This document shows positions 5,130 to 32,810 of a stretch of DNA of 51,052 nt, one piece after another. The first letter of the stretch is position 1; each line of letters begins with the position of its first letter. Made by a program: the position numbers and the translations under genes. The notes under the pieces were generated by a model, which saw only the letters and a program-made list of their open reading frames with translations, did no database searches and had not been told where the DNA came from. Origin of the DNA: a virus (Duplodnaviria; Caudoviricetes); IMG/VR virus record IMGVR_UViG_3300024520_000105, positions 1-51,052 of that record; one strand, given 5' to 3'.

Positions 5130-5161
5130 AGGCGGGGCTAAGGTCAGCCCCAACCCCGCCT
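5130..5161 (-). terminator. GC-rich stem-loop after the major capsid gene
   Basis: aggcgggg...ccccgcct inverted repeat. Confidence 0.55.
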
Positions 5162-5171
5162 TTAATTACCC

Positions 5172-6125: not shown

Positions 6126-6141
6126 TTTCTATCTCCTTAGC

Positions 6142-6636: not shown

Positions 6637-6640
6637 TGTA

Positions 6641-7048: not shown

Positions 7049-7051
7049 GAC

Positions 7052-7780: not shown

Positions 7781-7799
7781 TGACCTTCTCCTACTTGTC

Positions 7800-8036
7800 T
7801 TATCTCTGTCGCAGACGGCTACGCAACTCGCGCAACCTATCAATCTGCTTCAATTCGCCTCTACAAACTGCCGTGTCCCTCTCTGACAAGTCCTCTCGTT
7901 TTAGTCGTTGAACCACGTCTTGTTCGACTTCGTTGAGGTACGGCAAAAATGCTTCATCCCATTCAGGAAGGCTTGCCAGGTGCTTTACACCGTCACAAAC
8001 CTTCTGGTCTTTTATCCTGTCAAAAACTGTCGTCAT
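7800..8036 (-). CDS. Small conserved post-portal protein
   Basis: 78 aa, CRGELKQI motif, ATGA-coupled to the portal gene. Confidence 0.65.
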   Translation of the reverse strand: MTTVFDRIKDQKVCDGVKHLASLPEWDEAFLPYLNEVEQDVVQRLKREDLSERDTAVCRGELKQIDRLRELRSRLRQR

Positions 8037-10237: not shown

Positions 10238-10249
10238 TCTTATTCTCGC

Positions 10250-10567
10250 TTAAAGTTTTACGCCACACAAACTAGCCACATGATTCTGAGCTTGCGCTAT
10301 CATGCGCTTTAATCTGCGCCTATACTTAATCTGGCTAGGTCCACTAATCAAAGAGAGCGTCATGCTGTCTGCATTGGGCGATGTTATCTTGGCCCTAAAA
10401 TGCTTTCCTTTGTGCCGCTCTAGGTCTTGCATCGCCTTATTGCCTATGGCCTCTATCTGTTCGACTATGGGCTTGGACGTGTCTATTTCGGCATACTGAG
10501 CGTAGTTGGCCCCCTCGGTGGCGTTGTTGATTTCTGCAATCTCAATAACAATGTTCTCGTCGGCCAT
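10250..10567 (-). CDS. Hypothetical protein
   Basis: ORF track; in operon. Confidence 0.6.
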   Translation of the reverse strand: MADENIVIEIAEINNATEGANYAQYAEIDTSKPIVEQIEAIGNKAMQDLERHKGKHFRAKITSPNADSMTLSLISGPSQIKYRRRLKRMIAQAQNHVASLCGVKL

Positions 10568-10578
10568 GTTATCCCCAC

Positions 10579-10613
10579 AAAAAAAGAGCAGCCACCCGTT
10601 AAGGCAACTGCTC
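10579..10613 (-). terminator. Intrinsic terminator ahead of the head genes
   Basis: gagcagttgcc-ttaacg-ggtggctgctc-ttttttt on the minus strand. Confidence 0.75.
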
Positions 10614-10638
10614 CCGTTATATATTCGGTCAGAGCGAG

Positions 10639-10791
10639 TTATTCGTATGTCTTAGATGAATGGGCTTTTCGTACCTTGCCCCCAGAAACGACTATCTTTA
10701 GCTCCCCTTTACCGTGAGACTCTAATTTCTGCAGTATCCTTAGCACATCTTCGTGCGTCAGACCACTACATTTTGTATCGTGATTAGACAT
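10639..10791 (-). CDS. 50 aa DUF2292/YezD-like small protein
   Basis: Hand translation MSNHDTKCSGLTHEDVLRILQKLESHGKGELKIVVSGGKVRKAHSSKTYE. Confidence 0.55.
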   Translation of the reverse strand: MSNHDTKCSGLTHEDVLRILQKLESHGKGELKIVVSGGKVRKAHSSKTYE

Positions 10792-10827
10792 TACACTATA
10801 TCCTGTGGTGTAGTCAAACCTTTTTTC

Positions 10828-11490
10828 TCATTTTTTAGAATTTGGGTCTAGGTATCCTGCTATCTGCAGGTTTATACCGCTACCCTCCCACAACTCATTC
10901 TGCTGGCGGGCGTCCCATTCAGGCCCATAGTCATACCCATAGCGTATAGTCTCTCTGCCGCTATAGGCTGTTATGCCCTGTATGTCTATACCACGCTCTT
11001 TGGCGATGCCCCATAGGTATAGCATACCCATACGCTGTCTACGGTGCTTCAGGTCAAGCATATCGCAGCCTACTAGATGTATACTCTCATAACCCTCGTA
11101 TATGGCCTGAGCGAGCAAGTATGGGGGTGTACCACCCCAGAAGTCTAACCCTGTATAGGCTTCTATAGCCTTTGTGCCAAGCTCCTCTTCTATTTGGGCC
11201 AAAGGATAGGCCTCGCTGTTGGTTATTTGCTCTGATTGCTCCTGTAGGACGATTCTAACCCCCTGAGAGCCTAGCCAGCTTAGTTGGTCTAGGTGTTTTA
11301 CCCCGTCTATCTCGCTTACTAGGTCTTTGCGCTTGTCTAATTGGTGCATTTCATAGATTCGGGAGATTCGATTGGCCCATGGCAGGCTCCTGAACAGGTC
11401 CCAGCATGAGTTCATAGACCAGAACTCCCCCTCACCAGCGTATGGCAGCTTGAGAGAGGGGCCAAAAGACATGATTGTGACGGCTTTCAA
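10828..11490 (-). CDS. DUF115/Maf-like (MptE-like) putative glycosyltransferase
   Basis: GTPPYLLAQAIYEGYESIHLVGCDM and RIYEMH motifs; probable TTG start at 11490. Confidence 0.55.
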   Translation of the reverse strand: MKAVTIMSFGPSLKLPYAGEGEFWSMNSCWDLFRSLPWANRISRIYEMHQLDKRKDLVSEIDGVKHLDQLSWLGSQGVRIVLQEQSEQITNSEAYPLAQIEEELGTKAIEAYTGLDFWGGTPPYLLAQAIYEGYESIHLVGCDMLDLKHRRQRMGMLYLWGIAKERGIDIQGITAYSGRETIRYGYDYGPEWDARQQNELWEGSGINLQIAGYLDPNSKK

Positions 11491-12119
11491 GCCAGCACCC
11501 CCACAATGCTCTTCCTGCTGCATATCCCAAACAGCACACCAGCTATCCTGAACTTGAATATATCGTCCCTACGGTTAAACACCACATTATCGCCTATACC
11601 GCAGTCTCTTGGCTCCATAGGCCCTACAGCCACTATATTGCCCGTATTGATGTCAAACTCAGCATTCCAGTCCGTGAGCCTAACCCCCTCATCGAACTCC
11701 TGCCAGTCTAGCTTCAATACCACCATGTCATCTAAGGGCAATATCTTGCCGCCTCGCATTATGAAGGGCGGGCATATCCGCTCACGGCAGAACCAATACT
11801 CCATAGCCCTATCGCCTAATGGCTGTAGGTTCTGTAGGTCCTGCTCTGGCACCCATATAGTCTCACCATCTGCCCAATTACGTTGGCGGGCGCACATATC
11901 CTTGGTGAACTGCTTACACCCATCCCCTATGTCTATGAGTTCGCAGAAGTTGGTCTTTTCATGGTAATTGGCGGGCAATTCTAAGACTTTACCCCCACCA
12001 AGGTCTATTCCCCTAGTCCCATCGCCCAAATCGTCCGCCTGGCCACACTTCCTGACTATCATGCGGTCTTTTATCAGGTATATGCGGCTTATATAGTCTT
12101 CAGTCTCTTGCTGATTCAT
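11487..12119 (-). CDS. GroES-like co-chaperonin, apparently two tandem domains
   Basis: IKDRMIVRK and ILPLDDMVVLK...GNIVAVGP...IGDNVVF. Confidence 0.65.
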   Translation of the reverse strand: MNQQETEDYISRIYLIKDRMIVRKCGQADDLGDGTRGIDLGGGKVLELPANYHEKTNFCELIDIGDGCKQFTKDMCARQRNWADGETIWVPEQDLQNLQPLGDRAMEYWFCRERICPPFIMRGGKILPLDDMVVLKLDWQEFDEGVRLTDWNAEFDINTGNIVAVGPMEPRDCGIGDNVVFNRRDDIFKFRIAGVLFGICSRKSIVGVLA

Positions 12120-12270
12120 CCTTAGCCCTTTCTTCTGGATACCGACCTATCCACTCTTTGAACGCCTCCCTGTGCAACTTCACAGAATCGTCCGTAATCA
12201 CCCCATCAACAAACTCTTTCTCATACTTGAGAATAAGCTGCCCTATGATTTTACTCGCAAACACACTCAT
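12100..12270 (-). CDS. 56 aa hypothetical protein
   Basis: Hand translation MSVFASKIIGQLILKYEKEF...; coupled to terL and the GroES-like gene. Confidence 0.5.
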   Translation of the reverse strand: MSVFASKIIGQLILKYEKEFVDGVITDDSVKLHREAFKEWIGRYPEERAKDESARD

Positions 12271-14135
12271 CAATAACTCCTATAGCCCATATTGGGGCTT
12301 TTCTTGCGCTTCTTAGGTATGTCTGTAGCCGCCCAATAGTCTTTGGGGTTGTGTCGCACCTCTCTACCTCCTCTTTTGCCCAGATTGCCCACCCATCTCA
12401 AAGGTATCATAGCCCCATACCCCCATCCCGTCATGGCATGATTATCCTTGTCTCTAGGCTTCTCTGTAGCGTTCTTGTTGTCTATACGTCCCTTTTGCTC
12501 CTCATACACCCACCCCTCTACCTCTCTATATATGGGGCGATTGCATGGTAAATCAAAGATATACGTGTGGGGCGCACCCATCTGGCCCGTTACAGGGTGC
12601 TTGTGGTTAGGGTCTATCAGCAACTGCTGGTTTATCAGGGGCACCCAATGGTCAGTGAAGTTGCCCTTAGCCTTGGTCAGCCTATCCAGCCCAGCCCACT
12701 TATACACCTGCCCCAATGGGACCTGGTTGGAATCAGTATTAGTGCTAAACGACCTACTGTCCATAGCCGTCTTCCACACATACTCCCGCTCGGTAACCTC
12801 CCTATACCTTGGCAGCATCATACCGCTACGCTCGTCATGGTAGTTATCCAGCAATTCACGCCTATTGCCGCTAAGCTTGATTATCTCAGCCACATTCTCA
12901 TTTACGGTGCGTCCTCTAGTATACATGCACCGATAGATGAATACGTTAAGGTCTGGGTCTACAGAGAACCATAGGCAGCATGTGGGGTTATTGGTTCCAT
13001 GGTCTATGGACCTGTATAGCGTGTGATTATCGGGCGGGAACTCCCATAGCGGTGTAATCCAATGGACTGCAGGGTTCCACTCGTCCAATACCAGCCCACT
13101 CGTTACATGCCATTCCCCATAGAGCCTAGCCCTGCCCTCGGCTATACGCTTCCTGTCGTCATTCTCTATAGGCTCAGTCTCCCACTTGACCACTTCCTTG
13201 GCCTTCTCGGTATCAGGGTATATCCAGTCAGGCACGTCAAAGATGTCACCGCTCGTATAGGCCCTGACCGTATGGCCCTTAGTCACTTTGCCCGTAAGGA
13301 ATGGGCGTAACCATCCACCACCGCCAGTATCTGGCCTGCCATCTACCTTATGGGGCGTAGCTGCGAAGATATGCTTGCCCTTAGTCGTTCTCGTACCACG
13401 GTCTGCCCCATCAAACTTAGCCTCTACCCCCTGCTCATCCCACAGCCACTTATGTAAAGCCCCACCCTCATAGTTGCCTTGGTCCATCTCATAGGTGTAA
13501 AAGCCCAACGTAGACTTGCTCTTAGCCATCGTAATCGTTCTATCATGGCCCCAACTAGGCATGGATTTACCCTTTTTGCCCTTATAGGTCCTACCATATA
13601 TGCCCAATTCCTCGTCAGGCGTCCACTTCTTAACCAAATCCAGCCAGATAGGGTCTTCTAGCTTGGCCTGGTTGTAAGTGCTCACACCACACGATATAGG
13701 CCCCCTAAACGGCCTGTACTCTATGCCATGCTCTGTATACACCTCCCACGTAGGGTCTGTGACTAGCATGGGCGGGTCATCCAAGAACATCTTGACCACG
13801 GCACTTGTGGTCTTGCCAATACGGTTGCTATCGACCTCTGCCACAGCAGTAGCCTCATCGTCATTGATAAAGTCCTCTTGCTCCTTTGAGTTAGGGGCAT
13901 AGAATCTCAATGGGTTCCTTAGCTGTATCTGCTCTAGGGCAATGACATCGGCTGCGGTTTGGGGGTTGTCCTTTAGGTACTGTTGCGAATAGGTCAATAC
14001 GGTGCGGCCCAGAATAAGCCGCATACGGGCGGGGTCATTGATTAGCTTGACTAAATCCTCATTGCGCCTGTATTCGTCGTTATCGACCTCAGACACCTTG
14101 CCATCAGCGATTATAGTGTACTTAAAGGGATTCAT
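12270..14135 (-). CDS. terL: Terminase large subunit
   Basis: Walker A SNRIGKT, Walker B WLWDE, coupling motif AATP, nuclease SIDHG...NPT. Confidence 0.9.
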   Translation of the reverse strand: MNPFKYTIIADGKVSEVDNDEYRRNEDLVKLINDPARMRLILGRTVLTYSQQYLKDNPQTAADVIALEQIQLRNPLRFYAPNSKEQEDFINDDEATAVAEVDSNRIGKTTSAVVKMFLDDPPMLVTDPTWEVYTEHGIEYRPFRGPISCGVSTYNQAKLEDPIWLDLVKKWTPDEELGIYGRTYKGKKGKSMPSWGHDRTITMAKSKSTLGFYTYEMDQGNYEGGALHKWLWDEQGVEAKFDGADRGTRTTKGKHIFAATPHKVDGRPDTGGGGWLRPFLTGKVTKGHTVRAYTSGDIFDVPDWIYPDTEKAKEVVKWETEPIENDDRKRIAEGRARLYGEWHVTSGLVLDEWNPAVHWITPLWEFPPDNHTLYRSIDHGTNNPTCCLWFSVDPDLNVFIYRCMYTRGRTVNENVAEIIKLSGNRRELLDNYHDERSGMMLPRYREVTEREYVWKTAMDSRSFSTNTDSNQVPLGQVYKWAGLDRLTKAKGNFTDHWVPLINQQLLIDPNHKHPVTGQMGAPHTYIFDLPCNRPIYREVEGWVYEEQKGRIDNKNATEKPRDKDNHAMTGWGYGAMIPLRWVGNLGKRGGREVRHNPKDYWAATDIPKKRKKSPNMGYRSY

Positions 14136-14335
14136 TCACCCGCCATATACTCTCGCTCAGCATCCTCATCCATGAGCGAATTACGCACCACTCGCCCCTT
14201 GATATGCTCTAATACCCCCACAACATCAATAACGGTCAAGTCAGCCTCTTTCTCCCACCGACAACACGTATTCATCACTGAGTTGTAGAACTGCTCCACA
14301 GGCTTCATGGTCGGTACATCCATCTCATCACTCAT
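14132..14335 (-). CDS. Hypothetical protein
   Basis: ORF track; ATGA coupling. Confidence 0.6.
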   Translation of the reverse strand: MSDEMDVPTMKPVEQFYNSVMNTCCRWEKEADLTVIDVVGVLEHIKGRVVRNSLMDEDAEREYMAGE

Positions 14336-14426
14336 GCCAATCTCCCACTAATGCTACCCAAAACATCGCCCCAACCAGAATAACACTCACTATCGCCCCT
14401 ATCCACTTGAACGTCTCAATTATCAT
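14328..14426 (-). CDS. 32 aa single-TM protein
   Basis: MIIETFKWIGAIVSVILVGAMFWVALVGDWHE. Confidence 0.5.
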   Translation of the reverse strand: MIIETFKWIGAIVSVILVGAMFWVALVGDWHE

Positions 14427-14548
14427 AAATCCCCCGTAACCTTAGCATATACCCACATAACCCCAAATATCGCCCACACAACCACCTTCAATATCCCAGT
14501 CAATACAGCACATAAACAACTTATCACCAATAAGGCCACCCACCTCAA
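14423..14548 (-). CDS. 41 aa hydrophobic protein
   Basis: TTG start, GGAG RBS; RWVALLVISCLCAVLTGILKVVVWAIFGVMWVYAK. Confidence 0.45.
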   Translation of the reverse strand: MRWVALLVISCLCAVLTGILKVVVWAIFGVMWVYAKVTGDL

Positions 14549-14556
14549 TGCTCCCC

Positions 14557-14691
14557 TCACAGGGCCAGCCTATCCAAATAATGACACGTAGCCCATATAC
14601 CACCAATAACCACGGCAAGGCATATAGCCAGTATGAGCCATTGGATTAAGCCCCTGAATAAATGGCCTGTGTCTAGCGGGGGGCGGTTCAT
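14557..14691 (-). CDS. 44 aa single-TM protein
   Basis: MNRPPLDTGHLFRGLIQWLILAICLAVVIGGIWATCHYLDRLAL. Confidence 0.5.
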   Translation of the reverse strand: MNRPPLDTGHLFRGLIQWLILAICLAVVIGGIWATCHYLDRLAL

Positions 14692-15149
14692 GCTACCACC
14701 TCTTTCTTGTGTACCTCAGAGTGGTGTTGCGGGCAGAGCCACCGCACCTCTAGGGGCTTAGAATAATCGTCGTGGTGGGCATGTGTAAACAACCATCCAC
14801 ACACCTCACAAGGCTGACGCCACAGCTTGCTGCTCTCTACTGCCCGTCTAACCGCAGCGTGCGCCTTGTGCCTTTCTGGGCATTCTTCCCTGCGCTTACG
14901 GTTATGCTCGTTTATCTCTGGCAGGTGTTCTTTCGTGTATTTGCGCTTTCTAGCAGCCTCATATTCGGCATTGTCTGCCCTGTACTGCTTAAACCGCTCA
15001 GACTCCCGCTCCTTGTTCTTGCTGCGCCAAGTCTTGAACCGCTTGCTGCAGCACTCTTTGCACTGACAGAACAGCCCGTCCTTGTATCGCTTACCCTTGC
15101 TGAACATCGACTCGTCTTTCTCTGCGCCACATTTACTGCACTTCTTCAT
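14688..15149 (-). CDS. Zn-finger/HNH-like endonuclease
   Basis: CSKC...CKEC; HAHHDDYSKPLEVRWLCPQHH. Confidence 0.8.
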   Translation of the reverse strand: MKKCSKCGAEKDESMFSKGKRYKDGLFCQCKECCSKRFKTWRSKNKERESERFKQYRADNAEYEAARKRKYTKEHLPEINEHNRKRREECPERHKAHAAVRRAVESSKLWRQPCEVCGWLFTHAHHDDYSKPLEVRWLCPQHHSEVHKKEVVA

Positions 15150-15160
15150 GCCGCCTCCTA

Positions 15161-15409
15161 TTAGTGTTGTATCTTAGTAATAGAAACGGGCGGCGCAGGC
15201 GGTTTCTTAGATTCTGTCTTGGATTGAGGGGTACACGGACAGCAGCAGCAGCCCAACATAGTCTCAGCACTGCTTATGCTTCTAGGTGGCGGGGGCGGGG
15301 CTTCTCTGCCCTCTGGCGGGGCTACAAAGCCTTGCTCGTCTGAACCATCACCACTAGCCAATACAGTCCCCGCACATAGCGTGGCTGCTAGTATTCTAGC
15401 TATTTTCAT
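15161..15409 (-). CDS. Small secreted Pro/Cys-rich protein
   Basis: Signal peptide; CCCCPCTPQSKTESKKPPAPP. Confidence 0.65.
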   Translation of the reverse strand: MKIARILAATLCAGTVLASGDGSDEQGFVAPPEGREAPPPPPRSISSAETMLGCCCCPCTPQSKTESKKPPAPPVSITKIQH

Positions 15410-15441
15410 CCTCTATCTCCCTTTACACGCATAATGTATCC

Positions 15442-15717
15442 CTATGGGGCGGGGGTTACGCTAGAACACCCCACGTATTGCACCACAATCTCGCCATCCA
15501 CAACCTTCTCACGGTACTTGGACGAATCATACATATCGCCTATAGCCGTAAACATCGCCGGCGTCAACAGAACTCTCTCATCGCCCTCCATCACAGACGC
15601 ATACTCAACAATGCCCGTACTCTCGTCCCATTTCACGACAACCGTTGGCCCTTCAGTCGGGGGGCTTACAGAATCCCCCACCCCAGAAACAGGCTGATTT
15701 GTTATGGTTCGCATCAC
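15442..15717 (-). CDS. Hypothetical protein
   Basis: ORF track. Confidence 0.55.
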   Translation of the reverse strand: MMRTITNQPVSGVGDSVSPPTEGPTVVVKWDESTGIVEYASVMEGDERVLLTPAMFTAIGDMYDSSKYREKVVDGEIVVQYVGCSSVTPAP

Positions 15718-15863
15718 TTCGCCCCCCTATCAACCTTCTTAACACACCCACACGCACTATACCTCATACACCCACAGTTATCACACTTTATACTAGGCTT
15801 GGCTGTCGTCCAGTTCTCATTACCAGCTCGTATAGCCTTTAAGCCTTTAGATTCATTTGGCAT
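15714..15863 (-). CDS. 49 aa Cys-rich hypothetical protein
   Basis: Hand translation ...KCDNCGCMRYSACGC... Confidence 0.5.
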   Translation of the reverse strand: MPNESKGLKAIRAGNENWTTAKPSIKCDNCGCMRYSACGCVKKVDRGAK

Positions 15864-16065
15864 TGTTATCCCTCGGATGCGTCAAGTAATCCGTGTAGTT
15901 GCTTCTGGGGTCGGGCAATCCGTTCTCGTCACAGAACCTAGCTGCCAAATCAGCTATTGGGGCACAGTCATTGTTTGCACCCATCTTTGTGACCTCATCT
16001 CTAGTAGTAAGCCACGCACAGAACCCATAAACCGCTTCAGAACCAGTCAATACGCTATCCATCAC
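15853..16065 (-). CDS. Conserved phage hypothetical protein
   Basis: LTGSEAVYGFCAWLTTR...FCDENGL. Confidence 0.65.
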   Translation of the reverse strand: MMDSVLTGSEAVYGFCAWLTTRDEVTKMGANNDCAPIADLAARFCDENGLPDPRSNYTDYLTHPRDNNAK

Positions 16066-16205
16066 TTGCCCCCCTTCTTCACCTTCTTCACCCGCTTAGC
16101 ATCGCCCATATGCTTAGCATTTAACCTCACTAGCTCCATAGCCGCTATAGGGTCATAACTAGCCACATACGCCATATAGTCTATCTTGAAGTCAGACTTT
16201 GCCAT
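16062..16205 (-). CDS. 47 aa hypothetical protein
   Basis: Hand translation; coupled on both sides. Confidence 0.45.
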   Translation of the reverse strand: MAKSDFKIDYMAYVASYDPIAAMELVRLNAKHMGDAKRVKKVKKGGK

Positions 16206-16548
16206 TAGATTTACCTTTCTTCACCCATCCACCCACATTAGCCTCTACCTTCCTGTACCCTGACTTCTTTAGGCAGGCAGGGTGGAAGTAGTAGTGAGGG
16301 TCTTCGCTCCTACGGGTGAAAACATTGTAGTCGTCTATGTCGTTAGACTCCCTGCGCTTCTTGAATAATTGCTCATATATCGACAAGGGCAACGACTCCA
16401 TATCAGGCTCATGGCCCCATTCTTTGCATATATCACACTTCTGGTGTGCCGGTTCTCGCTCCAATACCGTCACACGCTCAGCCAGCGCAATATCACTAGC
16501 CCTTAACACAGTCATGGTATTCTTTAGATTCGCCCACCAACATCTCAT
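16192..16548 (-). CDS. Hypothetical Zn-binding protein
   Basis: CDIC...HPAC. Confidence 0.55.
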   Translation of the reverse strand: MRCWWANLKNTMTVLRASDIALAERVTVLEREPAHQKCDICKEWGHEPDMESLPLSIYEQLFKKRRESNDIDDYNVFTRRSEDPHYYFHPACLKKSGYRKVEANVGGWVKKGKSNGKV

Positions 16549-16688
16549 AATCTATACCCCCCAGTATATAACCTACAGTATCTTGTAGCTCACCAACCAC
16601 TATACACCATACCTTGGGGCCAAGTAAAGCCTTTTAGGGAAATCCCCCATATTTTTTGGGGTGTACCACAATATGGCACATTAAGAGT

Positions 16689-17799
16689 CTAGCAGCCCTT
16701 GGATATGCAGAAACGCATGAACTGCTCTACGGTATTCCACCCATAGCCAAACGTCATGTGGAACTCGTCATGGTGGGTCTTGCACAATGGGGCCAGATTA
16801 GACGACTGGTATATCTTATCCTTGGCTATATTACGCCCGTCCATGTGGTGTAGGTCAATAGGCTTTGGCACATCGCATATAACACAGCCAGCATATCGCC
16901 TTTTTATATTAGCCTTACATGTGCGCTTTTTGCCTATGCCTGGGTATTGTTCCGCCTTAAGGCACCCACAGGACTTGGTGTCGCCATTTTTAAGCGATGT
17001 GGCCCTAGTTTCAATAGTATTTCCACAGTCACAAAGGCATATCCACCACGCCTTCCGCTCCTTCTTGCCTCTAGCAAGCACCTCAAGACGTGTGAATCTC
17101 TGGCCAATAAGGCTGACTATCTGTGTTTTAGGCGAGCAACCACAGTGGGCGGCCTCTCTATTTGTGGTCCACTTCTCTGTGCCACAATCGCATCGTATAA
17201 GAACCTTGCCTTGGCGGCAGTCTAAAACCACGACTTTGCCTCTCCTTGTGCCGACCAGCTTGGACTTGCATCTGCCACAAGTTCTTCGATGGCCAAGCCG
17301 CCTATTGGCAAACTCAACCACTTCTCCACAATCGCATCTGCATACCGCCAAAAGCCCCCCCTGAGTATTTATACCCCAGAATCTCCAACTTCCCCTGCCT
17401 GTGCCCTATAGGCTTTGGCTCTGAACGGGTGCAAGTACAGGCCGTAAAGGCTTTCAGCCGGATTGCCCTTAATAGCCGTGTTTGGACTATTACCCGCTCT
17501 CGCCCGCATATATCGCACCTACACAACCACCGCCTGTCGTATTTGTCCTTGGACTTTTCGGCAAGGACTAGGAGGTGGCTTATCTGTTGCCCCTTAAGGA
17601 ACACACGCCTTGTAGGCCCCGCCACGGCCACTAAGGGCACTTCTTTGCCCAGCTTCCCATAGTACCGCCTACGCTGACGCTCTCGCTCACAAGACTTACA
17701 CTTCTTGTAATACCCGTCGCGGCTTTGGCGCTTATCCCAACGGACCTTAAACTCTGATATTGCCTTGGTTTCCAGACATCCTGAACATGTTTTAAGCAT
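16689..17799 (-). pseudogene. HNH homing endonuclease with CxCDCG repeats, split by a frameshift at a G7 run (17355-17361)
   Basis: ORFs 17314..17799 and 16689..17351 join as YSGG-LLAVCRCDCG if one G is removed; C-terminal LHH...NLAPLCKTHH. Confidence 0.75.
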
Positions 17800-17986
17800 C
17801 TATTCATCATAGCAGCTATTACTAGTTTGTCAACCGAAAAGGCTCTTTTAGCAAAAATTATGTGAAAAGTAGTAACGTGGCACCAAGGGTAGACGGATGG
17901 GCAACGGGTAGTCCCCATAGACCTACACGCCATGCCCATAGCCTATACACTCCATGCACATTGCCTTGCCTGTGCCATATAGCCTA

Positions 17987-18014
17987 GTGTCGCATAATAT
18001 ACGTTCGGTCTACT
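17987..18014. other. dif-like (XerC/XerD) recombination site
   Basis: gtgtcgcataa-tatacg-ttcggtctact, 11-6-11 layout; left arm close to E. coli XerC arm ggtgcgcataa, right arm degenerate. Confidence 0.45.
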
Positions 18015-18171
18015 CGTGATATTGCATAAGGTAGCATGGCTACTATGACTTATGACTATGGGGCAATGGGCTTGTACTTATTGAGATATGGGGCAATATG
18101 GGCGATAGTCATAAGCTACTATAACCAAGCTACTTTATGACATATAGGCTATAGGCTGTGGGGCATGTGCC

Positions 18172-18744
18172 CTATTCACTAGCCTTGAGCCTTAACAGTA
18201 TAGTCCCTGGCACGTCCTGCACCTGCTCCGACTGGCTGAGCATGGCCTGCTTGTCACGGGCTATGGCGGCCATTGTAGTGCTCTGGGCGGGCGATATGTC
18301 CCCTTGCTCGGCCCCTAGCTGGGCATTCACTAGGCTTGTGGCCTCCAATTTGGCCCATTGTGCGGCCCTGAAAGCTTTTATTTGCGCGGGGGTGAGCTTG
18401 AAAACCGATTTAGGGTCGTATCGCTTGCAATAGTCTCTTATGGTTTCCCATTCACACTTAAAGACCTTGGCTATCTTCTTATAGCCCAAACCCGCTGAGC
18501 GTCCCATGAGACACAGTAAAGCCGCCTCTGGGATGTCAAGCCACTCATCGCCTATACCGTTATCCCCTAAGTCAAGGACCTGTGGTAATGCTATAGAGCC
18601 GTCATCGGCAAGCTGTACGTCTTCAGGACTTATTATATCGTCTACGGTCTTATTGGGCCTTCTGCCGCTATTGTGGTTACCGCATGGCTTCTTTGGCTTG
18701 TCTGGTATGTCTTCTATGGGCGGGCGATTCGATGCTTCTTTCAT
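18172..18744 (-). CDS. Probable terminase small subunit (HTH)
   Basis: GLGYKKIAKVFKCEWETIRDY HTH; first gene of the packaging arm. Confidence 0.6.
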   Translation of the reverse strand: MKEASNRPPIEDIPDKPKKPCGNHNSGRRPNKTVDDIISPEDVQLADDGSIALPQVLDLGDNGIGDEWLDIPEAALLCLMGRSAGLGYKKIAKVFKCEWETIRDYCKRYDPKSVFKLTPAQIKAFRAAQWAKLEATSLVNAQLGAEQGDISPAQSTTMAAIARDKQAMLSQSEQVQDVPGTILLRLKASE

Positions 18745-19117
18745 GGCATGTATTATGGTCTATTTGGGCGGGCGTTTGCAAGCTTTTTAATCACGCTCGG
18801 ACCCGTTACATTTGGACGGCAAAATGTAGGGCACAGACTGACATTAGGCCAACATCTTGCCCCACCGTAAACGAAAGGCCCTTGTTCTATTGGCCTATAC
18901 GCTACACTCGAAATATCTTCGCAGTTTCTACAATGGTCTTTCTCATTGTTGCAATGGTAATAGTATTTGGGCTTCTTCGGGCGGGCGATTCGATGAAAAA
19001 AGAGGGCTTCCCAGAAAGTTTGCCTTTTCTTTCGTGACACCGGAATTGTGATACGCGCTGATATTGTTGGCTGATATGCATGTTTTGCGGGCTTAGTGTC
19101 ACGAATGGCTTTTCATC

Positions 19118-19134
19118 TTGGCACGGCAATCGCT
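19118..19134 (+). promoter_or_regulatory. Sigma54-type (-24/-12) promoter for the early arm
   Basis: TTGGCACG-gcaa-TCGCT versus consensus TGGCACG-N4-TTGCW. Confidence 0.55.
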
Positions 19135-19179
19135 TAATATACACCCATGACACAGAACACAAACAAAGGAGCACAGGCA

Positions 19180-19311
19180 ATGAAGACAAACAATGCGCTA
19201 GACATGCTGGCCGAGCAATGCGAACTATGGACTTGCCCTGTATGCTATATGGAGTCTATGCAAGATAAAGACACAAACAATGAAGACCGCATATGCGAGG
19301 ATTGCCAATAA
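19180..19311 (+). CDS. 43 aa Zn-ribbon early protein
   Basis: CPVC...CEDC; AAGGAG RBS. Confidence 0.6.
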   Translation: MKTNNALDMLAEQCELWTCPVCYMESMQDKDTNNEDRICEDCQ

Positions 19312-19481
19312 TGGCAAAAGCCAAATACGGTCATTGTGTCGAATGCGGCACAGCTCTTAGGCTTAGGAGGGTATATCGTAGTGCCGACCATGGTCTAATG
19401 GTTTGGACTCGTTGTAGAAATTGTGGGGCGAAACATGTATCCACAAAGTGGCTGACAACGCCAGTACTTAGCAGGGACTAG
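19311..19481 (+). CDS. Small Zn-ribbon early protein
   Basis: CVEC...CRNC; TAATG coupling. Confidence 0.6.
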   Translation: MAKAKYGHCVECGTALRLRRVYRSADHGLMVWTRCRNCGAKHVSTKWLTTPVLSRD

Positions 19482-19518
19482 TATAACCATGACACAGAAC
19501 ACCAACAAAGGAAACGCA

Positions 19519-19659
19519 ATGAACATTCCCGACCTGCCAGAATACCGCATTATAGACAGTATCGCTGACTATTGCCTTATCAGCCATGACGATTCTGCCG
19601 ACTTCGCCTTCTGGGTATCGGATATAGAAGCAAGATGCATATACGGGCTTAAGGTATAA
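19519..19659 (+). CDS. 46 aa early protein
   Basis: MNIPDLPEYRIIDSIADYCL...; follows leader repeat 2. Confidence 0.55.
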   Translation: MNIPDLPEYRIIDSIADYCLISHDDSADFAFWVSDIEARCIYGLKV

Positions 19660-19691
19660 CCGTGACAACAAAATGCAACAAAGGAGCAGCA

Positions 19692-20081
19692 ATGAGACGC
19701 ACAAATACAAACGAGTTCAAAGCAGCAATGAAAAGCACAAACACTAACGAGTTCAAGAGCAAGCTGCAGGCATACCTGGAGCCTATCATAGCGCAGAAGG
19801 CAGAAGACTACGGGCAGACGATAGAAGGCAATCCTTACCAGTGGGCTATTGATACAGCCAAGGCAGAGGTCGGCCATGAGTTTGACCGCAACGGTGACCA
19901 GGAAGGGCTTTCCTACTGGCTGAGCGGCCTAGCAATAGACATAGACTATAACTATTGCGACATTATACGGGTGGCGGAATCAATGCACGATTGCAAGCTT
20001 TCTGACAAAGAAGCTGATATGGTCTGTGAGCGTTGGTTTGACTTTGTAGCCTGTAAGATGCTCCAGTATGCGGCAGCTTAG
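19692..20081 (+). CDS. Early hypothetical protein with duplicated N-terminus (MRRTNTNEFKAA/MKSTNTNEFKSK)
   Basis: Between leader 3 and trailer 1; WLSGLAIDIDY. Confidence 0.75.
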   Translation: MRRTNTNEFKAAMKSTNTNEFKSKLQAYLEPIIAQKAEDYGQTIEGNPYQWAIDTAKAEVGHEFDRNGDQEGLSYWLSGLAIDIDYNYCDIIRVAESMHDCKLSDKEADMVCERWFDFVACKMLQYAAA

Positions 20082-20514
20082 CCCCCGCAATGACTCCCTG
20101 CTGCTATGGTAGCCCGGAGGATTGCCGACCAGAACGCAACGCCAGCAATGAGTTAACCATGACAACAAAATGCAACAAAGGAGCAGCAATGACACACTAT
20201 GAAGAACTAGCCAAACACCTGACCGAGCGCAGCGAAGAGATTTGCGCTGATAACGAATGCACAGAGGATGAACATAACTGCGACTCCTACGCCTACATGC
20301 AGGTAACGAGTCGGGGTTGCATTGACGGAAAGGAACGAATTGACGCAATGCTCTTGACGGTATGTTGCTCTGATTACTTTCAGGGAAGCGCCAAAGAGTA
20401 TATCGCTCTGCCGTTGCCTTTCACAGGTGATGCTAAGGCGTTGAAGGCAGCAGTTGAGGAGGAATGGCTTTCATTGGCTTAGCCCCCGCAATGACTCCCT
20501 GCTGCTATGGTAGC
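20076..20514 (+). repeat. Two identical 38 bp gene trailers (20076-20113, 20477-20514) that include the TAG stop
   Basis: gcttagcccccgcaatgactccctgctgctatggtagc; copy 2 extends into a hairpin. Confidence 0.9.
20189..20482 (+). CDS. Early hypothetical protein
   Basis: Between leader 4 and trailer 2. Confidence 0.7.
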   Translation: MTHYEELAKHLTERSEEICADNECTEDEHNCDSYAYMQVTSRGCIDGKERIDAMLLTVCCSDYFQGSAKEYIALPLPFTGDAKALKAAVEEEWLSLA

Positions 20515-20563
20515 AGGGGGCTGTTCTGAGGACTAACATGATAACGATACGGGGGGCGGAACG

Positions 20564-20716
20564 ATGAAAACACGCTTTGAAATGATAAAAGACAGGGATA
20601 CGGGCGAATGGAAGGTGGGGGAATTGCAGCCTAGCGGTCTATATAAGGTCGTATCTCGACACAAAGCCCACGATGATGCAAGGGCATGGATGAAAAGCCA
20701 CAGGGCCAACAAATAA
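20564..20716 (+). CDS. 50 aa hypothetical protein
   Basis: MKTRFEMIKDRDTGEWKV... Confidence 0.5.
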   Translation: MKTRFEMIKDRDTGEWKVGELQPSGLYKVVSRHKAHDDARAWMKSHRANK

Positions 20717-20726
20717 AGGAGCACCG

Positions 20727-20999
20727 ATGCGAGATACCACTATTAAATGCGATGCTTGCGGCAAGGAGCATGACTATTTGGGACTGCTAGACTTGAAGTG
20801 TACGGCAAGGACGGCTGGCCCTTTGGGGTTTGAGGAGTTTGAAATAAAGGGGATTGACGTTTGTGGCCTTGACTGCTTGCTGGCCTACATAGAGAAGAGG
20901 CGCGACCCGATAATGGTGAAAGATTGCCAGCATCCAAGAGAACATATACCGCCATTCGGCCCGATACCTTATGTTGAACGCACAAGGGAGAAAGCATAA
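20727..20999 (+). CDS. Zn-finger hypothetical protein
   Basis: CDAC...CGLDC; AAGGAG RBS. Confidence 0.65.
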   Translation: MRDTTIKCDACGKEHDYLGLLDLKCTARTAGPLGFEEFEIKGIDVCGLDCLLAYIEKRRDPIMVKDCQHPREHIPPFGPIPYVERTREKA

Positions 21000-21187
21000 T
21001 GCCAGAATACCTAACCAAAGGCAGCACAGTGACAAACGGCCATAGAGCCTATACGGTGGCAAGGGTGGCAAGGTCTAAAGAGTACCTTGGGGAGAAATTG
21101 TACCACTTCCACGGTATACAGGGCATAGTGTTCGGGCCATGGACGATAGAGGATATATATAACGCTGGCTATGAGCTGGCTGTTTAG
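20999..21187 (+). CDS. Hypothetical protein
   Basis: TAATG coupling. Confidence 0.6.
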   Translation: MPEYLTKGSTVTNGHRAYTVARVARSKEYLGEKLYHFHGIQGIVFGPWTIEDIYNAGYELAV

Positions 21188-21198
21188 GGGGCGGGACT

Positions 21199-21408
21199 TT
21201 GAAAATAGACATACAGGCAATCAAAGAGATACGGGCTGAGACTAAATGCAGTCTGCGGGAAGCTCTGACGGCATGGACAATCTGTCGCGGGGAAGCAACT
21301 GTAGCGGGCATGGCGGCTGAGAAGGAAACAGCAATAGCACTAATAGAATCGGGCAAGCTGGAGGACGTTTTCAGCTTTGTGGACGATTGTGCCAAGGAGA
21401 GAAGCTAA
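21199..21408 (+). CDS. Small protein with L7/L12- or EF-Ts-N-like helical motif
   Basis: IQAIKEIRAETKCSLREA. Confidence 0.5.
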   Translation: MKIDIQAIKEIRAETKCSLREALTAWTICRGEATVAGMAAEKETAIALIESGKLEDVFSFVDDCAKERS

Positions 21409-21759
21409 TGCACAACCTGGTAATAAGAGCAACGCTGGTAATGTTGGGGCTATGCCTGTTTGGGGCTATGTCTGCCTTGTGGTGTTTGGGATACATGGCG
21501 GCTATGGGGTTAATTGATTAAGGGGGCGGGACTTTGAGAATGCACAAAAACCTAGCAAAGACGCTTAAACTAGCCCTACGCCTACGCCTTATGGAATTGG
21601 CTAAGCAGGGGGTGAAGGTGACGATTCGGGGGGCGATGCTTTGAAAATGGCGGGCGATACAACCACATGGACCCAAAAGCTACTAGCCTTTCTATTGGGC
21701 TTTATTGTTATGGCTATATGCTATTGGGTGGGGGGAATGTGATTATGGAGGGCGATGGG

Positions 21760-21930
21760 ATGCAATATTATGTGCAAATACTAACCCTAGATGGGGATGT
21801 GCTAGAGGAAGAGATGGGGCCAATGTCGGAGCGCAAGGCCGATAGAGTTGAGGGCGGGGTAATGATTAACCTGAACCATGACGAATATTGGACGCGAGTA
21901 ATATCAACAGAAGAGAGGGAGACACAATGA
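21760..21930 (+). CDS. Hypothetical protein
   Basis: MQYYVQI...ADRVEGGVMINLNHDEYWTR. Confidence 0.6.
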   Translation: MQYYVQILTLDGDVLEEEMGPMSERKADRVEGGVMINLNHDEYWTRVISTEERETQ

Positions 21931-22050
21931 CCTGGCTGCATGACCACTGGATAGAGCTGCTTATGTCTATTGCTGTGGGGGTGGAGGTTTGGGCTGTAGG
22001 ATGGCTAATGGGGGCGGCGGTTTAGATTTAACAAACAAAGGAGAAACGCG

Positions 22051-22896
22051 ATGTGTAAACCAGCAAGTATGATAATCGTCCACAAGAATGTGGCAAAATG
22101 GAGCGAAACTACAGACTCACACCATGAGATAATTACGGAGTTCGGAATAAGGGAGGTTGATGCTAGGGGTGATATTAACATTGTCCCCGTTGAGATGTGT
22201 CCTGAAGGGGGCAATCTTAGTATCGCATTGAGTAAATGGAAGTATGGCGTGGATTATCAGGAGTTTGGCCGCGAATTGCCAGACTGGTACGATGCCGAGA
22301 AGTCAGAGGCTGCGGCAAGAGCTGCATTGCCCATGTGGGCAGAGAGTAGATTAAAAGGGTGGAAGCTCAAAGAGGCGTTCAAGCCTATAAACCCTCTAAA
22401 GCAGAAGCAGGACAAATCGCTTGATAAAGCGGCACTGCTGAAAGAGTGGGCTTCGGTCAGGGATTCGGTCATGGATTCGGTCTGGGCTTCGGTCTGGGCT
22501 TCGGTCAGGGATTCGGTCAGGGATTCGGTCGTGGATTCGGTCTGGGATTCGGTCGTGGATTCGGTCTGGGCTTCGGTCTGGGCTTCGGTCAGGGATTCGG
22601 TCTGGGCTTCGGTCAGGGATTCGGTCTGGGCTTCGGTCTGGGATTCGGTCGGGGATTCGGTCGGGGATTCGGTCTGGGATTCGGTCTGGGATTCGGTCTA
22701 TGGATATATAGGCTCCCTGTTTCACAACATAAAGAACTGGAAATACACAGACAGCAAGAACCCGTGGGCCTCTATCCGCAAACTCTGGCTGGGCGGCTAT
22801 GTCCCTAGCTTTGACGGCAAGACATGGCGGCTTCATGCGGGGCTTAAAGCTAAAGTCGTGTTTGAGATTACAGCAGAAGAACTCAGGGCCAGCTAA
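22051..22896 (+). CDS. Protein with tetrapeptide (W/R/V/G/M)-(D/A)-S-V repeat
   Basis: AAGGAG RBS; 21 tandem units. Confidence 0.8.
   Translation: MCKPASMIIVHKNVAKWSETTDSHHEIITEFGIREVDARGDINIVPVEMCPEGGNLSIALSKWKYGVDYQEFGRELPDWYDAEKSEAAARAALPMWAESRLKGWKLKEAFKPINPLKQKQDKSLDKAALLKEWASVRDSVMDSVWASVWASVRDSVRDSVVDSVWDSVVDSVWASVWASVRDSVWASVRDSVWASVWDSVGDSVGDSVWDSVWDSVYGYIGSLFHNIKNWKYTDSKNPWASIRKLWLGGYVPSFDGKTWRLHAGLKAKVVFEITAEELRAS
22447..22698 (+). repeat. 12 bp tandem repeat, 21 units (NNG-GMT-TCG-GTC)
   Basis: Directly visible. Confidence 0.95.
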
Positions 22897-22926
22897 TGGG
22901 GGTAATGGTATGAAAATGGGGGTAAT

Positions 22927-23274
22927 ATGAATCTAGAAGAGGTAATGGAGAAGGTAAACGAAAAGAACTGTCCTGAGTGTGGGGCTGCGGCCATTGAGGG
23001 CAGCAACGGATTAAAGCCTAGTTGTACCTGCATGGAGGAAGGCTCGCTGGCTGAAGATGAGCTAGAGGTAAATGAGTGGTGGTGCTGTGCTGACAATGCG
23101 CTTATGGTCCACTGGCAGAGCGTGGGCCCTAAGCTGGTGGAGGCGTTGGCTTCGCTGGCAGCAGCGGCTAGAGAGGAAATAGTCCACCCCGACAATGACA
23201 CAGGCTATCTTGAAACCGAAACCATCAGGGCCTTGGACCTGCTGACAGCCGTCGAAGAGGTACAGGGCATATGA
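22927..23274 (+). CDS. Hypothetical Zn-binding protein
   Basis: ORF track; CPEC. Confidence 0.6.
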   Translation: MNLEEVMEKVNEKNCPECGAAAIEGSNGLKPSCTCMEEGSLAEDELEVNEWWCCADNALMVHWQSVGPKLVEALASLAAAAREEIVHPDNDTGYLETETIRALDLLTAVEEVQGI

Positions 23275-23453
23275 CCATACTAGCCTATGCCTGTAGTAGC
23301 TTTCTTGAGGTGCAGAATGGCTCAGGAACGTATCTCTTCTCTGGGGTGGGCAATAGGGAGTATGCAAGGATACGGGCGATGCTTAGGCGGGGGGCAATCG
23401 GTTCGGCATGGCAGACATTGAAGAAGTATAAATGGGACAAAAAGGAGGTGTAA
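23271..23453 (+). CDS. Hypothetical protein
   Basis: ATGA coupling. Confidence 0.5.
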   Translation: MTILAYACSSFLEVQNGSGTYLFSGVGNREYARIRAMLRRGAIGSAWQTLKKYKWDKKEV

Positions 23454-23454
23454 G

Positions 23455-23652
23455 GTGGCAAGTGACACACAATATCTGGTGCGGTTAAGTGAGGATGAGT
23501 TGTGCTGCATTAAGTGGGCATTATGGCTCGCAGCAGGAACGGCCATGTTTTCGGGCGGTGCTGACCCTGACGCATGCCTAGATGCCGAAAGGTCTGTCGA
23601 GAAGGCCATAGAAACAGCAAGCATGGGAATAGACTGTACGGAGGCAATCTAA
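23455..23652 (+). CDS. Hypothetical protein
   Basis: GGAGG RBS. Confidence 0.5.
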   Translation: MASDTQYLVRLSEDELCCIKWALWLAAGTAMFSGGADPDACLDAERSVEKAIETASMGIDCTEAI

Positions 23653-23761
23653 TGGACGAACCATACAAAGTGGCACTTGAGATGGACGCTAACGGGGATT
23701 ACTTAACTGATGCATTGCCAGAGATAGACGAGACTGAACTGGTAATGTGCTGGGAGGGAGA

Positions 23762-24355
23762 ATGAAAACTAAGCGCAAATACATAAAAGATACGGCAAAG
23801 TTCACAAGCAAGAATGGTGTCAACTTGGTGGGGCAATCCTACCGCCAGCGAGACTATGCGGGGCGCATGCGTACCACTTGGGAGATAAACAGGACCGACA
23901 CCAAGGGGCTGTACGACAGCAAATATGTTGACAGCATGAGCGATTCTATAGGCAAGATGTACTCTACGGTCTTTCCCGAAACACCAGAGTCGTTTGAGAC
24001 ATATATCGCGCTATGGAAGAAGCGTTATGTGCTGCCAGATATACGCAACGGGCATTTCCGCAAAGCATCGAGCTATATGCTGGACCTGCACCTTGAGTGC
24101 GACATGAACAGCGAATCGTTTGACCGCCTGGTACAAAACACTGGCATGTTGCTGGATGCGGGCGAAATCGTAGAATATAACGACGAGCATGGGGTAGGCT
24201 CTTTCCACAAAACCAGCAAGAAGGGCAAATACAAGGCTAGGCATTGCAGGTGGGGAACCTCTAGGGATGAAACGCTGGACCTAGATGGCGTTAGGGCCTT
24301 TCTGCGTAGCTTCTTTCGTGTGGGCTATTGCATAGAGCAGGCCGAGGTATGGTAA
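23762..24355 (+). CDS. Hypothetical protein
   Basis: ORF track; ATG 23762. Confidence 0.7.
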   Translation: MKTKRKYIKDTAKFTSKNGVNLVGQSYRQRDYAGRMRTTWEINRTDTKGLYDSKYVDSMSDSIGKMYSTVFPETPESFETYIALWKKRYVLPDIRNGHFRKASSYMLDLHLECDMNSESFDRLVQNTGMLLDAGEIVEYNDEHGVGSFHKTSKKGKYKARHCRWGTSRDETLDLDGVRAFLRSFFRVGYCIEQAEVW

Positions 24356-24552
24356 TGAGCGACCTAGACCTAGAAAACAGGGTCCGTAAAATGCGCCTAA
24401 CCCTGACCAGCAACGATGCCAGGCTTAAGACCTATTATGTGCGCGGATGGGCCTGTCGCAAATTCGCTCCTAAGCGGGGGGCGAGTGGGCTGGCTCAGTT
24501 GGTAGCTTGGCTGGATTTCATGGACGAGGACGTAATAGAGGAGGAGATATGA
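24355..24552 (+). CDS. Hypothetical protein
   Basis: TAATG coupling. Confidence 0.5.
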   Translation: MSDLDLENRVRKMRLTLTSNDARLKTYYVRGWACRKFAPKRGASGLAQLVAWLDFMDEDVIEEEI

Positions 24553-29361: not shown

Positions 29362-30024
29362 GTGAAAGCATATTATCAGGATAGCTATTGTACGATATAT
29401 CACGGGGATTGTAGGGAAGTGTTGCCAGAGGTGGGTGACGTGGATTTAGTGTTGACCGACCCACCTTATGGGGTGGGCAAGCTTGTGGGCGGGATTTCCA
29501 AGGCTCGCAACAAGAACCATTATGCGTCACACGACGATACAGAAGAGTTTGTTGAAACCGTGGTGGTGCCCGTTATTATCACATGCATTGAAAAGGTGCA
29601 GAGGGTTGTTTTGACGCCAGGTTCACGGTGCATGTGGCTATACCCCCGCCCCTACTGCACAGGCGTATTCTATTATCCTGCCGGAGCGGGCATGTCGCGG
29701 TGGGGTTTTAACTGCTGGCAGCCAATCCTTTTCTATGGCAAAGACCCCTATGGTGGCACCTTGGGAAAACACAACGCTAGACGCAGCACTGAGGCGTCGG
29801 ACAAATCTATTGACCACCCGTGCCCCAAGCCCATTGGCGACTGGAAGTGGTTGCTGGACAGGGCCAGCAAGGAAGGCGAAACCATACTGGACCCGTTCAT
29901 GGGCAGCGGAACCACCCTCAGAGCCGCCAAGGACCTACAACGCCACGCTATAGGCATAGAGCTAGAGGAGAAGTACTGCGAAATAGCTGCCAAGCGTCTA
30001 GCGCAGGAGGTGTTGGCCCTATGA
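29362..30024 (+). CDS. DNA methyltransferase (N6-A/N4-C, beta class)
   Basis: DPPY; HPCPKP; DPFMGSGTT. Confidence 0.92.
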   Translation: MKAYYQDSYCTIYHGDCREVLPEVGDVDLVLTDPPYGVGKLVGGISKARNKNHYASHDDTEEFVETVVVPVIITCIEKVQRVVLTPGSRCMWLYPRPYCTGVFYYPAGAGMSRWGFNCWQPILFYGKDPYGGTLGKHNARRSTEASDKSIDHPCPKPIGDWKWLLDRASKEGETILDPFMGSGTTLRAAKDLQRHAIGIELEEKYCEIAAKRLAQEVLAL

Positions 30025-32378: not shown

Positions 32379-32810
32379 ATGCCTAGACGCAGAAAGAAAG
32401 ACAAACGCCCCTTAGCCGAAAGAAAGGCTGACCCGACCAGCAATTACTGGGACGACAGAGCGATGACGCTTTGGGGCGAGATAGTGCGAACTAAAGGCAC
32501 ATGCGAGAAATGTGGGCGAGTTGGCAGAGTTGAGGCACACCACCTGATAACACGGGCAGTCAAGTCTCTATGTCACAAGATAGAAAATTCTATCGCACTC
32601 TGCTTTCACTGCCATAGGGTTGAGCCAGGCTCGGCCCACGAAGACCCCGTGGTGTTCACTCAATGGCTAAACAACGTCAAGCCAGACCAATACCAGTGGG
32701 TTATGGAGAACAAACACAAGATTCGTAAGCCCGATTTCAAGCAGGCTTATGAGGACTTAGTAGAAATCAAACGACTTTCTGAGCAAGCCGCACCTAATCA
32801 GGGCAGCTAG
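32379..32810 (+). CDS. NinG-like HNH recombination nuclease
   Basis: CEKC...EAHH...NSIALCFHCH. Confidence 0.75.
   Translation: MPRRRKKDKRPLAERKADPTSNYWDDRAMTLWGEIVRTKGTCEKCGRVGRVEAHHLITRAVKSLCHKIENSIALCFHCHRVEPGSAHEDPVVFTQWLNNVKPDQYQWVMENKHKIRKPDFKQAYEDLVEIKRLSEQAAPNQGS

Follow-up and report, generated by a model that had tools for sequence, protein, structure and literature searches.

The DNA analysed here, referred to as the window, is the whole of the IMG/VR virus record IMGVR_UViG_3300024520_000105 (Caudoviricetes; 51,052 bp), a complete record of an uncultured marine phage, for which CheckV estimates a completeness of 100%. Two neighbouring genes on its + strand, A (19692..20081, 129 aa) and B (20189..20482, 97 aa), are unrelated in their coding sequences and are enclosed by the same flanks: a 38-nt leader, ending at the start codon, and a 38-nt trailer, which includes the stop codon. 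They are located at the very head of the rightward arm (rightward genes: 19180-39280), directly right of the divergent gap 18745-19179, and are, judging from the genome layout, probably early genes. In the reading favoured here, held to be somewhat better than evenly probable, the flanks are expression junctions of the phage itself, not parts of a mobile cassette, and their identity over 38 nt is the scar of one event of recombination or conversion. Expression timing, signal function and recombination, past or ongoing, are what we infer from the features described below, all of which, unless stated otherwise, are on the + strand.

Four copies of the leader were found. Those preceding A (copy 3, 19657..19694) and B (copy 4, 20154..20191) are identical at 37 of 38 positions, in agreement with the original prediction: the sole mismatch is a G at 19662 against an A at 20159, and both copies end at the ATG, copy 3 extending from the TAA stop of the upstream gene to the ATG of gene A. 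For a 28-mer of this leader, 0.00 matches are expected on the basis of 100 shuffles. Two diverged copies, also anticipated, precede the 43-aa gene 19180-19311 (copy 1, 19132..19182) and the 46-aa gene 19519-19659 (copy 2, 19470..19521), and are only about 70% like copies 3 and 4. When the whole genome is searched by nhmmer with a profile of the four leaders, the E values are 1.4e-13 (copy 3), 9.9e-13, 1.1e-12 (copy 2) and 2.2e-9 (copy 1), while the next best site scores 0.89: no fifth copy is present in the genome. A weaker leader had been proposed before the gene starting at 22051; there, only a 10-nt Shine-Dalgarno block, AACAAAGGAG, is shared with the leaders, and nothing more (profile E 3.3).

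All leaders contain an A/C-rich stretch followed by the Shine-Dalgarno sequence AAAGGAG (AAAGGAA in copy 2), located 5-8 nt before the ATG (8 nt in copy 1). They fold worse than their own shuffled sequences (z between +0.60 and +1.89; in the case of leader 4, 199 of 200 shuffles equal or exceed it in stability), as fits an open ribosome-loading site. The idea that the leader derives from the 5' end of the gene A coding sequence was considered and set aside as marginal, the best results being 15 and 16 of 3000 shuffles, over 15 tests, in low-complexity sequence.

The trailers of A (20076..20113) and B (20477..20514) are identical at 38 of 38 positions, as predicted, and the 51,052-bp record contains exactly these two copies. 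Each consists of the last sense codon GCT, the TAG stop and a further 32 nt: copy 1 covers the last codon, the stop, the 5' arm of a stem-loop, its loop and the first 5 nt of the 3' arm. According to the original prediction, only the last trailer completes a hairpin. This holds for the perfect hairpin: an 11-bp stem-loop (20495..20520, -19.9 kcal/mol) is formed at trailer 2 only, where it closes the block of class I leaders, all four leaders being upstream of it. It does not hold for folding as such: trailer 1 is also completed, by a private 3' arm, into an imperfect stem-loop (20087..20125, -17.1 kcal/mol) of 14 bp with two internal loops. The 3' arms of the two stem-loops differ and are non-homologous. 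When the 3' flanks are replaced by random genomic ones, the folding is equalled or bettered in 94 of 5000 trials at trailer 1 and in 22 of 5000 at trailer 2; among the 40-nt windows of the 20-kb rightward arm, the two stem-loops rank 12th and 3rd, respectively, for stability. That both trailers are completed, and by different sequences, is an argument for the fold itself being wanted.

Trailer 1 and leader 4 are separated by a unique 40-nt spacer (20114..20153). Its resemblance to a decayed ("ghost") leader lacks significance, since the same score is reached by 97 to 373 of 2000 shuffles. Similarly discarded were a long-range helix between leader and trailer, enclosing each gene, which is no better than in shuffled sequences (56 to 478 of 1000), and a motif common to the trailer and to the repeats of locus L003, described below, TTAGCCCC, found at chance level (18 matches, with 14.6 expected). 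The search in Rfam gave a sub-threshold microRNA match only, judged to be noise.

Homology between the flanks breaks off abruptly at the start and stop codons: upstream of the leaders, downstream of the trailers, and between the coding sequences of A and B, alignments are no better than those of shuffles. Homology ending exactly at codons is what a recombination joint at conserved junctions would leave. A and B show no similarity by BLASTP, belong to separate families and have different predicted folds; they are thus unrelated, as claimed at the outset, and not diverged paralogs. The junction before A features a further rearrangement: a 36-nt tandem duplication (19685..19756, 89% identical) repeats the last 8 nt of leader 3, the ATG and 9 codons, doubling the N-terminal motif of the protein (RRTNTNEFKAA and KSTNTNEFKSK). 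The homologs of A have a single copy of the motif, and their N-termini match the second ATG (19728). The duplication, lying over the boundary between leader 3 and gene A, indicates that this junction has been rearranged before.

Right behind the strong stem-loop of trailer 2, a second junction family starts (20541..21652), composed of a stop codon, GGGGGCGGGAC, TTG or ATG, and AAAAT. Its four copies, at 20541-20579, 21176-21214, 21513-21547 and 21619-21652, have nhmmer E values from 4.7e-8 to 4e-7.

Gene A is a member of phrog_11100, a family widespread in marine phages: it has 12 relatives in a collection of 5.8 billion proteins, and a relative confirmed by tblastn in 231 of 492 metagenome stretches matching a search pattern. 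Relatives of 29% identity are found in two cultured phages, Pelagibacter phage HTVC010P (gp64, L085) and Rhodobacter phage RcCWillis (gp91, L086), in both cases within runs of small hypothetical genes near the genome end; in HTVC010P the relative is the outermost gene. For B, 7 relatives were obtained by a word-indexed search, and 94 cluster representatives at E <= 0.001 by an exhaustive profile search. Five positions of this second family, C19, C24, H29, C31 and C59, hardly vary and may form a metal site. AlphaFold predicts five helices for A (predicted local distance difference test, pLDDT, 90.3) and an alpha/beta fold for B, in the order helix, three strands, helix (pLDDT 93.4). No match with E below 0.6 was found by Foldseek against PDB for either protein; VIA-align reached best Z values of 3.6 and 3.9, with no solved structure matched; BFVD, searched with A, returned uncharacterised viral proteins only, ESM Atlas offered no usable lead on the function of the cargo, and Pfam and PADLOC reported nothing for A or B. 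An anti-defence role of the two proteins is a guess.

The association of flanks and cargo was evaluated in other genomes. For A, 80 loci with relatives were kept from the metagenome search: at none of them are the flanks present (blastn-short found no trailer, and leader matches of 12-16 nt only, as expected by chance), nor do any of the 80 carry relatives of 17 other proteins of the early arm. When the seven closest loci (46-63% identity) were compared with the whole window by tblastx, gene A alone was matched; this check included 19.4 kb of the 46.7-kb contig behind L004, the closest locus (63% identity), which shares only A with the window. The sequence directly beside the A relatives varies from locus to locus, and several loci have a hairpin of their own after the stop codon. 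Relatives of B were analyzed at two loci, having little or nothing else in common with the window. One, L003, is from a distant relative, with a B relative of 45% identity and the same gene order (B, methyltransferase, helicase); the other, L130, has a B relative of 44% identity. The flanks are absent from both: none was found in L003 by blastn-short, and L130 shows no DNA-coded similarity beyond B. In IMG/VR, a 25-mer of the trailer has no match, and with a relaxed leader pattern 43 single matches were obtained, none of which proved related when profiles and proteins were compared. Among 185,579 genomes, one per species, a 21-mer of the trailer is found once, inside a high-GC bacterial contig without other likeness: with a rough expectation of about 0.3, this match is judged to be due to chance. 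By these comparisons, the flanks are private to this genome and do not move with their cargo, and the A and B families are each scattered among otherwise unrelated phage genomes.

Some of the same loci, from other uncultured phages, have repeated junctions of their own. L003 (4704-6268) features several, including a 42-nt upstream repeat, before consecutive tiny genes; L004 (8468-8836, 10422-10638) and L038 (11770-12207), which carry A relatives, have private repeated leaders, again before consecutive tiny genes. Because of these cases, stereotyped junctions seem to be a common house style of such early regions.

The stretch is also present in three seawater metagenome runs (X1, X2 and X3) from three studies, analyzed as 31-mer (Logan) contigs. 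The contigs of X1 and X2 have 0 differences over 17500-22502; an X3 contig (19912-20189) links gene A to leader 4 by way of trailer 1 and the unique spacer, again with 0 differences. No joints were found within 19100-20600 in the three runs, a result of little power, since contigs break at the repeats in the 31-mer graph and rare variants are dropped. A different gene between the same flanks, a deleted form or a circle was not seen in any relative, contig or run. The expectation of the original prediction, that related genomes or reads would contain the same flanks around different genes, or excised circles, found no support in the 80 A loci, in IMG/VR or in the three runs.

On the reading preferred here, the leader would be the translation-initiation region of four separately initiated genes, at the head of a probably early rightward operon. 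The trailer would supply the 5' half of a stem-loop in the RNA, immediately behind the stop codon, with protection, processing or attenuation of the message as its most likely role; the strong second stem-loop would close the first gene block. The 38-nt direct repeats are also substrates for ordinary homologous recombination. In a single event, a gene may have been inserted or exchanged at existing junctions, or neighbouring junctions may have undergone gene conversion. For insertion, a circle or a co-infecting genome carrying trailer, spacer, leader and B would recombine with the resident trailer behind A. Conversely, A would be lost, in a deletion of 497 nt, by crossing over at the leaders, and B, in a deletion of 401 nt, by crossing over at the trailers; in either case an intact unit would remain. 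One homologous event at pre-existing junctions is the simplest account, because the other leaders are only about 70% alike and the identity ends exactly at codons. The earlier proposal of recombination at conserved flanks is partly supported, in these terms, as history: the sharp codon boundaries and the scattered families fit a recombination joint, left by one event. Its other part, exchange as an ongoing process or by a dedicated system, is unsupported.

Several observations weigh against this reading. No close relative of the phage was found for comparison, either by blastn or by protein searches of IMG/VR; the three metagenomes show no arrangement other than this one, and a single genome is the basis for the recombination step. 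In X1, the depth of the spacer contig (18.1) is close to that of its neighbours, gene A and the upstream contig (17.4 and 19.3). A and B have the same GC content, overall and at third codon positions (GC3), as the rest of the arm, with no compositional sign of recent arrival. A phage annealase or recombinase was not identified: a candidate annealase beside the PHROG "exonuclease" was rejected, the neighbour being a replication initiator of the NGO0469 family, for which a sequence search of PDB gave nothing useful. Composition, the lack of a recombinase or annealase and that of variant arrangements, taken together, disfavour a recent foreign arrival. Gene conversion alone could be the source of the perfect 38-nt identity. 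Finally, no proper U-tract is found at either hairpin, and no sigma-70-like promoter in leader or trailer: a scan of 18000-23000 with the sigma-70 consensus gave 6 sites, with 5.7 expected, and a promoter of another type may still be present. For these two reasons message protection, processing or attenuation may be preferred to classical termination.

Selection for expression, combined with local gene conversion, might by itself account for the likeness of the flanks. They would then be regulatory repeats only, never joints, and A and B would have come by unrelated illegitimate events, later gaining signals in the house style. This alternative, rather unlikely on balance, draws on the stereotyped junction families of this phage and of others, on the absence both of variant arrangements in the three runs and of the flanks at all other loci, and on the composition of A and B, matching the rest of the genome. 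Selection alone, however, explains neither the identity of 37/38 and 38/38, against about 70% for the other two leaders, nor its end exactly at start and stop codons; moreover, the 36-nt duplication over the boundary between leader and gene A marks a rearranged junction.

Ongoing exchange would go further than the single event favoured here: in the natural population of the phage, first-expressed genes such as A and B would leave the genome as small circles and re-enter it, by homologous recombination between leaders or between trailers. Virions would then differ in their sets of immediate-early genes, possibly for counter-defence, placed behind ribosome-binding and stem-loop signals already in position, and the whole would be an integrase-free pool of cassettes outside T4-like phages. 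This is considered distinctly unlikely.

A different role of the leader, its translation, was also weighed. An in-frame start codon is located 30 or 33 nt upstream of the ATG in all four copies, with no stop between (ATG at 19147, 19489 and 20159, in copies 1, 2 and 4; GTG at 19662, in copy 3). The mismatch between leaders 3 and 4 turns ATG to GTG, still a start, and the copies differ in length by 3 nt. The four unrelated first-expressed proteins would accordingly share an N-terminal peptide of 10-11 residues (MTQNTNKG.. or MTTKCNKGAA), or have two alternative starts; the B relative of L130 has an in-frame ATG 30 nt upstream, too, and a similar peptide. Yet the upstream start is not preceded by a Shine-Dalgarno sequence, while a perfect one is found before the downstream ATG, the homologs of A and B start at the downstream position, and stops are present upstream of the B relative in L003. 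A shared frame is weak evidence with four related copies, and the G-A residues follow from the Shine-Dalgarno letters. Translation of the leader is improbable, with only a small share of belief assigned to it.

A dedicated site-specific system, integron-like or other, having the trailer or the leader as its recombinase site, would agree with unrelated genes lying between conserved flanks and with the ability of the trailer to fold as a hairpin. No integrase or recombinase was found, however, among 59 open reading frames (ORFs) scanned with PHROGs, nor in Pfam and NCBIfam scans, a result to be read with the fact that many ORFs have no match at all, so that a novel enzyme may be among them. In addition, there are two trailers only, the flanks accompany the cargo at 0 of 80 loci and are absent from IMG/VR, and their one match in 185,579 genomes looks like chance. 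The comparison to an integron made in the original prediction is not sustained, and such a system is hardly credible.

Equally hard to credit is an assembly artefact, in which two strain variants, having A and B, respectively, at one locus, were joined in tandem. In its favour, the repeats are longer than 31 nt, so that Logan contigs break there and do not fix the order A-B versus B-A. Against it, the X3 contig joins gene A to leader 4 without differences, the X1 spacer contig has about the depth of the A and upstream contigs, the stretch is found in runs from three studies and the spacer cannot exist in a single-gene variant.

Among known systems, the closest parallel is offered by the PeSLs (promoter-early stem-loops) of T4-type phages, described as repeated intergenic modules in which a stop codon is followed by a stem-loop, a Shine-Dalgarno sequence and a start codon (PMC2839356). 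PeSLs are reported to flank ORFans in hyperplastic regions, with insertion, deletion and replacement by homologous recombination, and mini-circle intermediates (Arbiol et al. 2010, PMC2839356; Comeau et al. 2014, PMC4122927). The gap between A and B (20079-20191) has a similar layout: a stop within the trailer, a stem-loop, the 40-nt spacer, and a leader with AAAGGAG and ATG. In both cases the stem-loops are stable (here -19.9 and -17.1 kcal/mol, better than at least 98% of random 3' flanks), small genes of unknown function are flanked, in a plastic early region, and the direct repeats are long enough for homologous recombination to delete or insert a whole gene with its signals. The two also differ. 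PeSLs, as described, are defined by a sigma-70-like early promoter (-35, -10) inside the element, which was looked for here and not found; they are single composites of about 100 bp, whereas leader and trailer are separate modules; they number about 50 per genome, against four leaders and two trailers; and shuffling between close relatives and mini-circles belong to PeSLs, while here a single, unrelated 51-kb marine virus genome is available. Because no sigma-70 promoter was found, the modules are separate and shuffling is not demonstrable, the case is not filed as a PeSL member. A cyanophage paper mentions PeSLs, and judges them unlikely to explain its own ORFan region (PMC4503421).

The leaders, taken alone, resemble the start-associated sequences (SAS) of Cluster K mycobacteriophages, for which a 13 bp consensus, GGGATAGGAGCCC, is described, present in 11-19 copies and conserved across the cluster (Pope et al. 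2011, PMC3203893). SAS contain a Shine-Dalgarno core, are all oriented the same way and lie 3-7 bp ahead of the start codons of non-structural genes that are unrelated to each other (PMC3203893). As with SAS and the extended form (ESAS), the repeat is asymmetric, with a Shine-Dalgarno core, and is found, in four copies out of four on the + strand, 5-8 nt before the ATG of unrelated genes; both types are confined to the non-structural part of the genome, and absent from other phages and from hosts. Here, in contrast, the repeat is about 45 nt long, with four copies in one genome, one pair being nearly identical; its sequence is not GGGATAGGAGCCC, and no related phage carries it. SAS, as described, come without a matching trailer.

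In coliphage T7, RNase III processing hairpins between early genes leave each message with a 3' hairpin. The stem-loops described here are likewise located in gaps between genes of one, probably early, transcript, but have shorter stems, of 11 bp in one case and 14 bp, interrupted by two internal loops, in the other, and there are only two of them. A lambdoid moron carries its own promoter and terminator. Morons and boundary sequences share with the present case small accessory genes with signals, in varied contexts, and novel joints at gene boundaries; here, however, the signals belong to the resident genome and not to the gene. In an integron, the IntI tyrosine recombinase is encoded beside the array, and attC travels with the cassette. 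Unrelated tandem genes, each followed by a foldable repeat, are a common trait; in this genome no integrase was found, the repeat does not accompany the gene to other genomes, and every gene is preceded by a ribosome-binding leader of its own.

With regard to the genome as a whole, a search for end repeats gave none, and tRNA genes are absent from the window. A blastn search of 18700-22100 against 50,697 phage records gave no DNA-level match to cultured phages. In IMG/VR, the 190-aa neighbour protein has no relatives; for a 621-aa protein one relative was obtained (51% identity), on an 11.7-kb contig ending before the early region. Besides the replication initiator and the PHROG exonuclease, the rightward arm contains a DnaB-type helicase, a ClpP-type protease gene (36482-37279) and two paralogous DNA methyltransferase genes (29362-30024 and 33742-34395; phrog_67, E 6.5e-47 and 1.1e-50). 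Leftward genes occupy 1-18744 and 39510-51052: their large ORFs (up to 1533 aa, - strand) presumably code for structural proteins, and, because nearly all of them are without a PHROG or Pfam match, the virion module appears to be from a poorly sampled lineage. Four genes are of the HNH or endonuclease VII type (16689-17351, 17314-17799, 14688-15149, 32379-32810), two of which are adjacent and overlapping, beside the divergent region. In the gap between the leftward genes 17314-17799 and 18172-18744, a 41-nt inverted repeat is found (18019-18059 / 18105-18145), 76% complementary, with the arms 45 nt apart.

The motif GGGCGGGCGAT occurs four times on the + strand, at 18281, 18714, 18762 and 18975 (within 18281-18989), in a stretch that takes in the divergent control region as well as the leftward 190-aa gene at its 5' end. 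This motif is similar to the G-rich junction of the second family (class II), and could be an operator or promoter element. The gene 22051-22896, encoding a 281-aa early protein, contains about 20 tandem 12-nt units (22399-22747), coding for a (D/A)SV(W/R) tetrapeptide repeat. This is the sole place within 17500-24500 with many variant letters and a very high summed contig depth over the three runs. One X3 contig jumps 166 nt in this region (22631 to 22798), so the number of units probably varies in nature.

As it stands, the arrangement is a clean case, though not an unusual one, of stereotyped expression junctions within the early region of a phage. The flanks are most likely the phage's own signals, reused during gene shuffling, a known style of phage genome building. 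The cargo represents two families of small proteins, both widespread among phages, whose confidently predicted structures have no solved match; the A family can be tested at the bench, having relatives in cultured Pelagibacter and Rhodobacter phages. If the flanks do guide exchange, PeSL-type shuffling, so far described for T4-like myoviruses, would extend to an unrelated, uncharacterised lineage of marine phages; A and B would then be swappable immediate-early genes, and candidates for host takeover or counter-defence.

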